Shown here: one piece after another, positions 3,001 to 6,000 of the stretch
Layout: every line of letters begins with the position of its first letter
Numbering within the stretch: position 1 is the stretch's first letter
Assembly: GCF_054482525.1 (NCBI RefSeq)
Contig: NZ_CM137006.1
Length of the DNA: 64,000 nt
Strand: one strand, 5' to 3'
Program-made: the position numbers

Positions 3001-6000
3001 TACTAAATTAAGAAAGCCTCTTGGTCAGCTTTAATAAACCCTGCACTTATCTGGTTAGAGCATTTCGGCATTAGTTTCACTATGCAAACATTAACCATAG
3101 CTAATGATTTATAGCCATATAAACCATTAGTCGCTCTTGACTTTTCCTGACACTTCCCTTGTTCGCAATAATATTCTGTTTAGTCGCTGTTTATAAATAT
3201 CATGCATAATGAAATCGTCATGTTATTTAGCGACATAAAATGTCTTTGCAAATACTCTCTACAACAAGTGCTGCAATAAACTTGTTGTGATTAGGTGTCC
3301 TTGTAATTTAAAGATATTATCGTTCTTCGTGAAATGTAATAACCCTGGAAACTATATTCTCAGGGCAACAACCAATTAAGAATGATTCTTGTTTTATAAG
3401 CAATAACAGAATGACTTAATTGTTAACTCTCTTTATTCAGCTACTTAAATATAAATTTTGGAGAATTATGAAACTCAAACATGTCGGTATGATTGTCGTT
3501 TCTGTGTTGGCGATGTCGTCTGCTGCGGTAAGCGCAGCCGAGGGTGATGAATCAGTAACGACCACTGTTAATGGCGGTGTTATTCATTTTAAAGGTGAAG
3601 TGGTAAATGCCGCTTGTGCGATTGATTCAGAATCAATGAACCAAACGGTTGAGCTGGGTCAGGTTCGTTCTTCTCGCCTGGCAAAAGCGGGTGACCTCAG
3701 CTCTGCCGTTGGCTTCAATATCAAGCTGAATGATTGTGATACCAATGTTTCCAGTAATGCAGCTGTTGCATTCCTGGGTACTACTGTCACCAGTAATGAC
3801 GATACCTTAGCGCTGCAGAGTTCAGCGGCAGGCTCTGCCCAAAATGTCGGTATTCAAATTTTGGACCGTACGGGGGAGGTATTAATACTTGATGGTGCCA
3901 CTTTTAGCGCTAAAACCGACTTGATTGATGGCACGAATATACTGCCATTCCAGGCTCGTTATATTGCTCTCGGGCAGTCAGTAGCTGGTACTGCAAACGC
4001 TGATGCGACCTTCAAAGTTCAATATCTATAATTCAATCTTAAGATGGCTATACGTCATCTGAAATTGAAACAGGGTGTGTGTTGCATGGCTACGCACACC
4101 CGAGCAATTCACCAATGTTCATCTCATTATTAATGAGGAATAGTTTGTGTTTTGGAGCGGTATGAAAAAATCACATAATATCTAAACGATCAATAAACAA
4201 CAGTAGTTAAACTTACTGTTATTTAAAATATTTACTTTGTAGCAAGGTTTTCCTATTAAAAGAGAACCAACATTTATTACAAACGCATTAAGTCTGGAAA
4301 CCCGGCGAGTCGCCAATGTATTAGCAACATTTACCGATTGTCTGATGTAACGGTTTCCCCGCTTATCCTCTTAACACATGGAGAATGCATCAGATGCAAA
4401 CTACGCGTACCCCCTACTCTATTTCCTTTATGGCGACAGTGTTACTTTTATTGCTCTTTGCTTGCCATAGCACCGTTGCCAACGCAGCTGTCGCACTGGG
4501 TGCGACGCGGGTAATTTATCCGGCAAACCAGAAACAGGTTTTATTGCCTGTCACGAATAATGATCCTGCCAGTGTCTATCTCATTCAGTCATGGATAGAA
4601 AATGCAGGTGACCAAAAAGACACCCAGTTTGTCATTACGCCACCGCTTTTTTCCATGCAAGGTAAAAAAGAGAATACGCTGCGGATAATCAACGCCACTA
4701 ATCATCAGTTACCAGGCGACCGTGAAAGCCTGTTCTGGGTTAATGTCAAAGCTATTCCTGCTATGGAAAAAGACCAGAAGAATGAGAATACATTACAGCT
4801 GGCAATTATTAGCCGCATAAAAATGTTTTATCGCCCCACGAACCTGGCAATGGCACCTGAAGAAGCGCCTGCAATGCTTCGGTTTCGTCGCAGCGGTAGC
4901 AAACTTACTCTTATTAATCCAACGCCCTACTTCATTACCGTAACAAATATGAAAGCAGGAAATAGCAATCTCCCAAATACCATGGTGCCGCCAAAAGGTG
5001 ATGTATCGGTGGATATCCCGCATGCTGCAACCGGGGATATCAGTTTTCAGACGATCAATGATTACGGTGCATTAACTCCGCGTATTAAGGCAACCATGCA
5101 GTAAACCAGTGACCTAATTAATAATAAACTCAATCGGAATTAATAATGACAGCCTTTCGTGCCGCATTTAAGGCATATCGTATGCATCAGGTATTACTAC
5201 TGCCTCGCTTTGCACGGCTTACCATTGCCCTTGGCTTAGCAACTGCGGTTTTTCCCGTTGACGCAGAGTATTATTTTAATCCACGGTTTTTAAGCAATGA
5301 TCTTGCTGAATCTGTCGATTTATCCGCCTTTACTAAGGGACGCGAGGCACCACCTGGTACATATCGGGTCGACATTTATTTGAACGACGAATTTATGACT
5401 AGTCGGGATATTACTTTTATTGCAGATGATAATAATGCAGATCTCATCCCATGCCTGAGTACAGACCTTCTTGTCAGTCTTGGCATAAAAAAATCAGCAT
5501 TATTAGACAATAAGGAACATTCGGCAGAAAAACATGTGCCGGACAACAGCGCATGCACACCACTTCGGGATCGTTTGGCTGACGCATCATCTGAGTTTAA
5601 TGTTGGTCAGCAACATCTATCACTCTCCGTTCCGCAAATTTATGTTGGCAGAATGGCTCGCGGCTATGTTTCTCCTGATCTGTGGGAAGAAGGAATAAAT
5701 GCTGGGCTTCTAAACTATAGTTTTAATGGTAATTCTATTAATAATCGTAGTAACCATAATGCAGGAAAATCCAACTATGCATATTTGAATTTACAGAGTG
5801 GCATCAACATTGGTAGTTGGCGACTGCGCGATAACTCAACGTGGAGTTATAACAGTGGGATTAGCAATTCATCTGACAGCAATAAATGGCAGCATATCAA
5901 TACGTCGGCTGAACGTGACATTATTCCCTTACGCTCACGCTTAACGGTAGGTGATAGTTATACCGATGGCGATATTTTTGATAGTGTGAACTTTCGTGGC

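Follow-up and report, generated by a model that had tools for sequence, protein, structure and literature searches.

What do three copies of a short motif do in the DNA upstream of a fimbrial operon? F9/Fml fimbriae play a part in chronic urinary tract infection, in the colonisation of cattle and in plant attachment, but only some of their regulation is understood. In the 64-kb window analysed here (the whole stretch of 64,000 nucleotides), an earlier note had described 3035-3467 as an AT-rich fimbrial promoter and leader holding three copies of a GTCGCT motif near 3130, 3183 and 3230, the last one inverted, and had proposed that the copies could be a binding array for a regulator or part of a phase-variation mechanism. 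The outcome on these two proposals was negative: we found no hidden phase switch and no regulator array, and the repeated GTCGCT adds nothing to the picture of F9 regulation.

The region lies directly upstream of the F9/Fml operon

The window is part of an E. coli chromosome, and over positions 2780-4100 its identity is 100% with PCN033 and 98% with 042, both E. coli strains. According to the annotation of the PCN033 and 042 records, the gene order is an autotransporter gene, hipB/hipA remnants, an ISNCY transposase fragment, a truncated AraC-type pseudogene, 'fimA', the chaperone and usher genes, ydeS, ydeR, ydeQ and then ydeP-safA-ydeO. The fimbrial genes 3' of 3035-3467 are the F9 (Fml, Yde; ydeQRST) chaperone-usher operon with fmlA first; the region lies directly 5' of fmlA, and the operon is located between hipBA and ydeP. 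All six genes are on the plus strand and were identified by annotation together with Pfam searches of their products: fmlA, the major fimbrial subunit gene (3468-4031; Fimbrial, 6e-31), the chaperone gene (4394-5104; PapD_N/C), the usher gene (5146-7797; Usher), ydeS (7811-8341; Fimbrial), ydeR (8354-8857; Fimbrial) and the adhesin gene ydeQ/fmlH (8917-9831; FimH_man-bind).

The intergenic region on the plus strand comprises 433 bp, is homologous to the f9 promoter region of strain CFT073 and contains the f9/fml promoter and 5'UTR. Its GC content is 31.9% (68% A+T) compared to 47.5% for the whole window. The Shine-Dalgarno sequence GGAG of fmlA can be read at 3460-3463 (plus strand), and a ribosome-binding site directly 5' of the start codon has been noted for CFT073 f9 (PMC3966885). 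The description of 3035-3467 as an AT-rich fimbrial promoter and leader thus held up, and the annotation and Pfam results name the operon as F9/Fml.

On its 5' side the region is bordered by a gene fragment for an AraC-type regulator (2768-3034, plus strand; yneL/ECs2114-like), which is an N-terminally truncated pseudogene retaining the HTH domain only (Pfam HTH_18, 3e-21). Records of PCN033, 042 and other strains label the fragment 'incomplete; missing N-terminus', and an in-frame stop lies upstream of it.

Motif copy 2 coincides with the -35 element of the mapped f9 promoter

In CFT073, 5' RACE placed the f9 start site at a G located 251 nt upstream of the ATG of the major-subunit gene (Wurpel et al. 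2014, PLoS One 9:e93177; PMC3966885), and the core promoter was assigned as -35 TAGTCG, an 18-bp spacer and -10 CATAAT (PMC3966885). All of these elements are present in the window on the plus strand: the -35 hexamer TAGTCG at 3181-3186, identical to the CFT073 assignment, the 18-bp spacer, the -10 hexamer CATAAT at 3205-3210, which is the same in every allele read, and a G at 3217 (3468 - 251 = 3217) as the predicted transcription start, followed by a predicted 251-nt 5'UTR of fmlA at 3217-3467. Since the -35 hexamer occupies 3181-3186, the second motif copy at 3180-3188 is the -35 element plus its flanking bases. The f9 -35 matches TTGACA at three of six positions, and the core promoter is weak.

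The window and CFT073 represent the same locus and agree in the -35, spacer length, -10, start G, 251-nt leader length and the positions of the +8 and +89 H-NS motifs, whereas the alleles diverge by about 5% and CFT073 has GTACCT in place of the GTCGCT of window copy 1. In B2 strains such as CFT073, the DNA upstream of about 3070 also differs from that of the window, and the AraC-type fragment is absent.

The region is very probably the already characterised sigma-70 promoter and long leader of the F9/Fml operon, AT-rich and silenced by H-NS. RNA polymerase would use the -35 TAGTCG (3181-3186), the 18-bp spacer and the -10 CATAAT (3205-3210) and would start at G3217, and H-NS would bind the AT-rich promoter and early leader and repress at 37 °C, whereas near 20 °C the operon would be expressed. 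CFT073 is the strain in which the start site, a gel shift of a 251-bp f9 promoter fragment by H-NS, the derepression of F9 in an hns mutant and its expression at 20 °C were demonstrated (PMC3966885). The window itself provides the locus identity, the coincidence of promoter elements with motif copies and the conservation pattern; we infer that its allele behaves like that of CFT073. On this reading, the three GTCGCT copies would not be one functional unit: copy 2 would be the -35 element, copy 3 (+13 to +18) would sit in an invariant segment matching the H-NS nucleation consensus, and copy 1 would lie in an unconstrained, polymorphic distal region and match copy 2 by chance in the allele of the window.

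The GTCGCT copies are not jointly conserved across strains

Copies 1 and 2 are exact copies of the 9-mer TTAGTCGCT on the plus strand, located at 3127-3135 (-90 to -82) and 3180-3188 (-37 to -29) with a spacing of 53 bp. Copy 3 (GTCGCT on the minus strand at 3229-3234; AGCGAC, within TTTAGCGACA, on the plus strand) lies at +13 to +18 in the initial transcribed region and has only the 6-nt core in common with the other two. When the region was shuffled 5000 times with its dinucleotides preserved, 2.7% of the shuffles held a hexamer with at least four G/C in three or more copies, counted over both strands together, and 88% held some exact 9-mer repeat, which makes the repeat only marginally unusual. 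GTCGCT itself reached three copies in 0 of 5000 shuffles, a test that is post hoc. A second promoter built on the TAGTCG of copy 1 was considered and rejected, as no acceptable -10 lies at the right distance by eye and none appeared in the promoter scan.

We reasoned about conservation within the species only, since no similarity of the upstream DNA was found beyond E. coli. FmlA was used to search species-representative genomes, which gave 58 loci, mainly paralogous type 1-like pilins, and no DNA similarity to 3035-3467 at those outside E. coli; the closest of these, from Citrobacter sp. JGM124, shows 76% identity, and the approximately 1 kb upstream of it is unrelated. Within E. coli, the core of the region (3100-3300) was found in 4,915 of 5,426 complete genomes at 93-100% identity. 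Twenty-two alleles were read: the window's own, those of 042 and CFT073, one from a contaminant contig, and 18 from additional strains that cover the identity range.

The copies behaved differently in these alleles. Copy 1 occurs in eight variants (TTAGTCGCT, TTGGTCGCT, TTGGCCGCT, TTAGTAGCC, TTGGTAGCC, TTGGTAGCT, TTAGTAACT and TTAGTACCT) and is polymorphic at four of nine positions, with a pi of 0.21 compared to 0.046 region-wide, placing it among the most polymorphic spots of the region. GTCGCT is present at this site in 5 alleles and missing in 17; CFT073 reads TTAGTACCT and O157 reads TTAGTAGCC. At copy 2, TTAGTC is kept in all alleles and GTCGCT is intact in 12 of the 22; in the other 10, including O157, O111:H8, O145 and K-12-like strains, GCT is changed to ACG, so that the -35 reads TAGTCA instead of TAGTCG and comes one position closer to TTGACA. 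Copy 3 is unchanged in 22/22. The earlier note had named a lack of conservation across strains as a result that would refute its proposal, and this is what the comparison showed: all three GTCGCT cores occur together in only 4 of the 22 alleles. The motif itself is present as the earlier note described it, with three copies at the given places and the last one inverted, but the third shares only the core, the excess over chance is marginal and the set is not conserved.

These data bear directly on the proposal that the copies form a binding-site array at -86, -33 and +15 for a dedicated factor, either the AraC-type neighbour or an unlinked regulator, that activates or represses f9. Three copies do lie inside 108 bp of AT-rich DNA, copies 1 and 2 are separated by about five helical turns, a GC-rich hexamer at three copies is found in few shuffles, and an AraC-type HTH fragment is located directly upstream. 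However, the proposed binding sites are not conserved across the orthologous promoters, with copy 1 gone from most alleles and copy 2 altered in nearly half, and strict co-variation between the copies is absent in the 22 alleles. The strains used for work on F9 regulation lack one or two copies: CFT073 is without copy 1, and one O157 strain is without copies 1 and 2. Temperature-dependent expression of fmlA has been described in O157 Sakai (PMC7766294). The AraC-type gene was rejected as the cognate regulator because all strains examined have it only as a truncated pseudogene, and its reporter was barely expressed (PMC7766294). The failure to find a homologous upstream region outside E. coli also argues against an array, which we regard as very improbable.

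With one copy being the mapped -35 and no joint conservation of the three, we see here neither an array for a regulator nor a switch for phase variation. Copy 2 is the -35 mapped in CFT073 (PMC3966885), copy 1 is polymorphic and only copy 3 is invariant; by the sequence comparison, the suggested array appears largely refuted by non-conservation. The region is already known, and the GTCGCT set is made up of the mapped -35, a portion of an H-NS motif that had been predicted before and a chance match specific to the strain.

The region lacks the hallmarks of a phase-variation switch

The other proposal was that the region is a phase-variation switch, which could take the form of a fimS-like invertible promoter, a pap-like Dam/Lrp methylation switch or a variable repeat tract. 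F9 is the closest paralogue of type 1 fimbriae, which have an invertible promoter; the region also contains several short inverted repeats, and copy 2 is paired with copy 3 as a 6-bp inverted repeat around the -10 element and the start site. A fimS-like switch would make both orientations common among assemblies. In contrast, the core 3100-3300 was found at 4,921 places in 4,916 records with every sampled row a single collinear piece, and the whole region, taken as 434 bp, at 4,934 places in 4,928 records, where at the sampled places its orientation was the same as that of fmlA wherever fmlA was retained. No inverted allele was thus seen in about 4,900 genomes at the sampled places of the core and the whole region.

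The machinery of inversion was not found either. The fimS repeat does not occur in the window, and the annotation between lsrK and ydeO shows no gene for a recombinase, the ISNCY transposase fragment being the only mobile-element gene there; the combination of both orientations, flanking repeats and a FimB/FimE-type recombinase gene that characterises fimS is therefore missing here. The F9 operon does resemble the type 1 system with its fimB/fimE genes: both are gamma-1 chaperone-usher operons, closely related to each other, and F9 has a FimA-like pilin, a FimH-like adhesin and an AT-rich regulatory region 5' of the major subunit gene. It differs in that the 9-bp fimS repeats and neighbouring genes for tyrosine recombinases are missing and that inverted alleles were not seen in the genomes surveyed.

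The region resembles the pap switch as a fimbrial regulatory region with loose, Lrp-like AT-rich sequence 5' of the -35, as read by eye. Unlike pap, which has two GATC sites inside Lrp-binding regions 5' of its promoter, it contains 0 GATC sites in 3035-3467, compared to a window mean of 3.7 per kb, and no papI/papB-like genes are annotated. With respect to slipped-strand variation, 3035-3467 contains no homopolymer of at least 6 and no tandem repeat beyond CTCTCT, and the allele alignment showed no variation in tract length or copy number. Inversion and variable repeat number, which the earlier note had suggested looking for across strains, were accordingly both absent, the former at the sampled places in approximately 4,900 genomes and the latter in the allele alignment. 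With no inverted allele, GATC site, repeat tract, fimS repeat or recombinase gene, phase variation was not borne out, and we give it next to no credence as an explanation of the region.

Copy 3 lies in an invariant segment that matches the H-NS consensus

Six putative H-NS motifs were predicted in the CFT073 f9 promoter, at -111, -103, +8, +14, +57 and +89 (PMC3966885). We scanned the window with the consensus TCGATAAATT, allowing two mismatches. A putative motif, TCGCTAAATA, matches the consensus at 8/10 positions at 3224-3233 on the minus strand (+8 to +17), corresponds to the published +8 motif and holds most of copy 3, which supplies its TCGC. Another, TCTTTAAATT, also 8/10, lies at 3305-3314 on the minus strand and corresponds to the +89 motif (PMC3966885). 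As matches at two mismatches are frequent (116 in the 64-kb window, about 1.8 per kb), the coincidence at +8 and +89 is consistent with the prediction and does not prove it.

In its 68% A+T promoter, silence at 37 °C, derepression in an hns mutant and weak core promoter, F9 is like the H-NS-silenced cryptic chaperone-usher operons of E. coli (PMC3966885), compared to which the region shows nothing distinctive. A CFT073 study of 2025 observed no thermoregulation of F9 under its conditions and low F9 expression (PMC12890032), so the regulatory picture of F9 is incomplete.

The conserved features of the region are a block at 3143-3185, the -10 element and the first approximately 25 nt of the transcript. 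The block (plus strand, about -74 to -32) runs into the -35 and has 0 variable sites in a 14-allele alignment, compared to 18 of 65 sites just upstream; O111:H8 differs once within it, at 3171. A promoter-like CTGACA-16-TAATAT lies inside the block at 3147-3174. The constraint on copy 3 and on this block is not specifically accounted for by silencing through H-NS alone. The start of the leader at +7 to +26, with copy 3, and the -74 to -32 block could therefore be undescribed specific control elements, separate from generic H-NS silencing, to which we assign a small probability. One candidate is an operator, or an RNA element whose pairing with the start-codon region would be the basis of the cold-favoured translation of fmlA; another is an activator site or second promoter 5' of the weak -35.

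A related possibility is that, among the motif copies, only the copy 3 segment TTATTTAGCGACATAAAATG (+7 to +26) is functional in its own right, as a high-affinity H-NS nucleation site or operator or as a 5' leader RNA element. The segment is invariant in the 22 alleles and carries the 8/10 consensus match at a position predicted in PMC3966885, but H-NS consensus matches of this quality are common by chance. For the RNA version, the predicted minimum-free-energy fold pairs GCGACAU (3230-3236) with AUGUCGG (3481-3487), beside the start codon, and the leader folds slightly better than its shuffles (z-score -2.05). In O157 Sakai, the 18 °C level of a translational fmlA fusion exceeded that at 37 °C at least 6-fold (Holmes et al. 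2020; PMC7766294), and the modelled pairing could contribute to this temperature-dependent translation. Both strands of the pairing, 3230-3236 and 3481-3487, are invariant and so offer no covariation. On the other side, the modelled accessibility of the ribosome-binding site was nearly flat over temperature, with a slight shift opposite to the one required (0.34 at 18 °C and 0.41 at 37 °C), which led us to reject an RNA thermometer; Rfam gave no match up to E = 1 in 2900-4400, and other predicted helices carry uncompensated changes. Taken with the evidence on both sides, a separate function of this segment seems rather unlikely, and the H-NS-silenced sigma-70 promoter is the preferred reading of the region.

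Two of these other helices were examined as candidates and rejected. A 9-bp perfect hairpin, ACAACAAGT-N10-ACTTGTTGT, lies at 3261-3288 on the plus strand (+45 to +72); four of its stem positions vary with no compensating change. A CCCTG...CAGGG leader stem is likewise broken in B2 alleles, and neither stem has support from covariation. K-12-like strains carry a deletion of approximately 3.3 kb that begins immediately 3' of the 3261-3288 hairpin, removes the remaining leader together with fmlA and the chaperone gene, and also takes away the 5' part of the usher gene.

A palindrome in the leader lies near a weak Fur ChIP peak

Other regulators have been connected with F9. F9 transcripts were reduced in a pst mutant of APEC, where the Pho box upstream of ydeT was only pattern-predicted (PMC2648988); inspection of the region by eye gave no convincing match to a Pho box. 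For Fur, Banerjee et al. (2020) assigned to fmlA a weak ChIP-seq summit, located at NC_004431.1:1778955, and reported that its expression in a fur mutant was 0.38-fold. The ATG of CFT073 fmlA is at 1778860, which puts the summit 95 bp upstream of it and its equivalent in the window at about 3373, well downstream of the GTCGCT copies.

A position weight matrix was built from 13 distinct Fur sites of Banerjee et al. (2020), and its best score in the region, 11.6 bits at 3378-3396, is reached by 3.7% of shuffles. As a Fur box this stretch is weak, with known sites scoring 16.8-24.6 bits, and Banerjee et al. (2020) give fmlA no FIMO motif; we did not adopt it. A 7-1-7 palindrome, (T/C)AAGAAT-G-ATTCTTG, at 3377-3391 (+161 to +175) is nearly invariant in the alignment, lies 4-18 bp from the window equivalent of the CFT073 Fur summit and is at most a weak candidate Fur site. 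This palindrome, the -74 to -32 block and the invariant early leader are better targets for promoter dissection than the repeated motif.

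Sequence features around the f9 promoter

A 43-bp block of the f9 promoter region (3143-3185) lies directly 5' of the -35 element of fmlA and extends into it. No variable sites were found in this block across the 14-allele alignment, and the preceding 65 bp are 28% polymorphic. O111:H8 carries a single change within the block, at 3171. The block also contains a promoter-like CTGACA-16-TAATAT arrangement, and it may represent an activator site, an UP element or a second promoter.

Further upstream, a near-palindrome with 13-nt arms that are 92% complementary, CTAATGATTTATA-N4-TATAAACCATTAG, spans 3101-3130, directly 5' of the first copy of the GTCGCT motif (3127-3135, plus strand) and partly overlapping it. 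Its position coincides with that of the putative H-NS motifs at -111/-103 (Wurpel 2014, PMC3966885). Polymorphisms in several strains degrade the near-palindrome.

Within the fmlA 5'UTR, a perfect 7-1-7 palindrome, (T/C)AAGAAT-G-ATTCTTG, occupies 3377-3391 (+161 to +175) and shows almost no variation between strains. A weak Fur ChIP-seq summit has been recorded at fmlA in CFT073 (Banerjee et al. 2020), and the palindrome lies 4-18 bp away from the window equivalent of this summit. It is also the top match to the Fur position weight matrix in the region, but a weak one. As a separate observation, strain 382634_2f (L070) has lost the palindrome through a deletion of about 73 bp in the 5'UTR (window about 3317-3389), with the promoter and the ribosome-binding site retained.

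A larger deletion, of about 3.3 kb (window about 3290-6572), is present in K-12-like strains (about 1,500 genomes) and runs from directly after the hairpin at 3261-3288 to a point within the usher gene near 6573. What remains in these strains is the truncated ydeT fused to the f9 promoter and the initial 72 nt of leader.

Other observations in and beyond the window

Elsewhere in the window, a strong Fur-box match of 20.5 bits, inside the range of known sites, was found at 17312-17330 (GCTAATGATAACCATTCCC). It sits at the beginning of a 561-aa ABC-transporter ORF (17316-19001), which we take to resemble yddA of the yddA-yddB-pqqL cluster.

At 1869-2514 and 1622-1867, going by the annotation of strain PCN033, hipA is disrupted in the window's strain by an ISNCY transposase fragment; what is left 5' of the AraC-type fragment is hipB together with no more than an N-terminal piece of hipA.

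One contig labelled as a Candidatus Nanosynbacter metagenome-assembled genome (L003, JARKOR010000214.1) carries an fmlA that is 99% identical and an f9 promoter region that is 95% identical; the contig almost certainly entered the bin as contaminating E. coli DNA.
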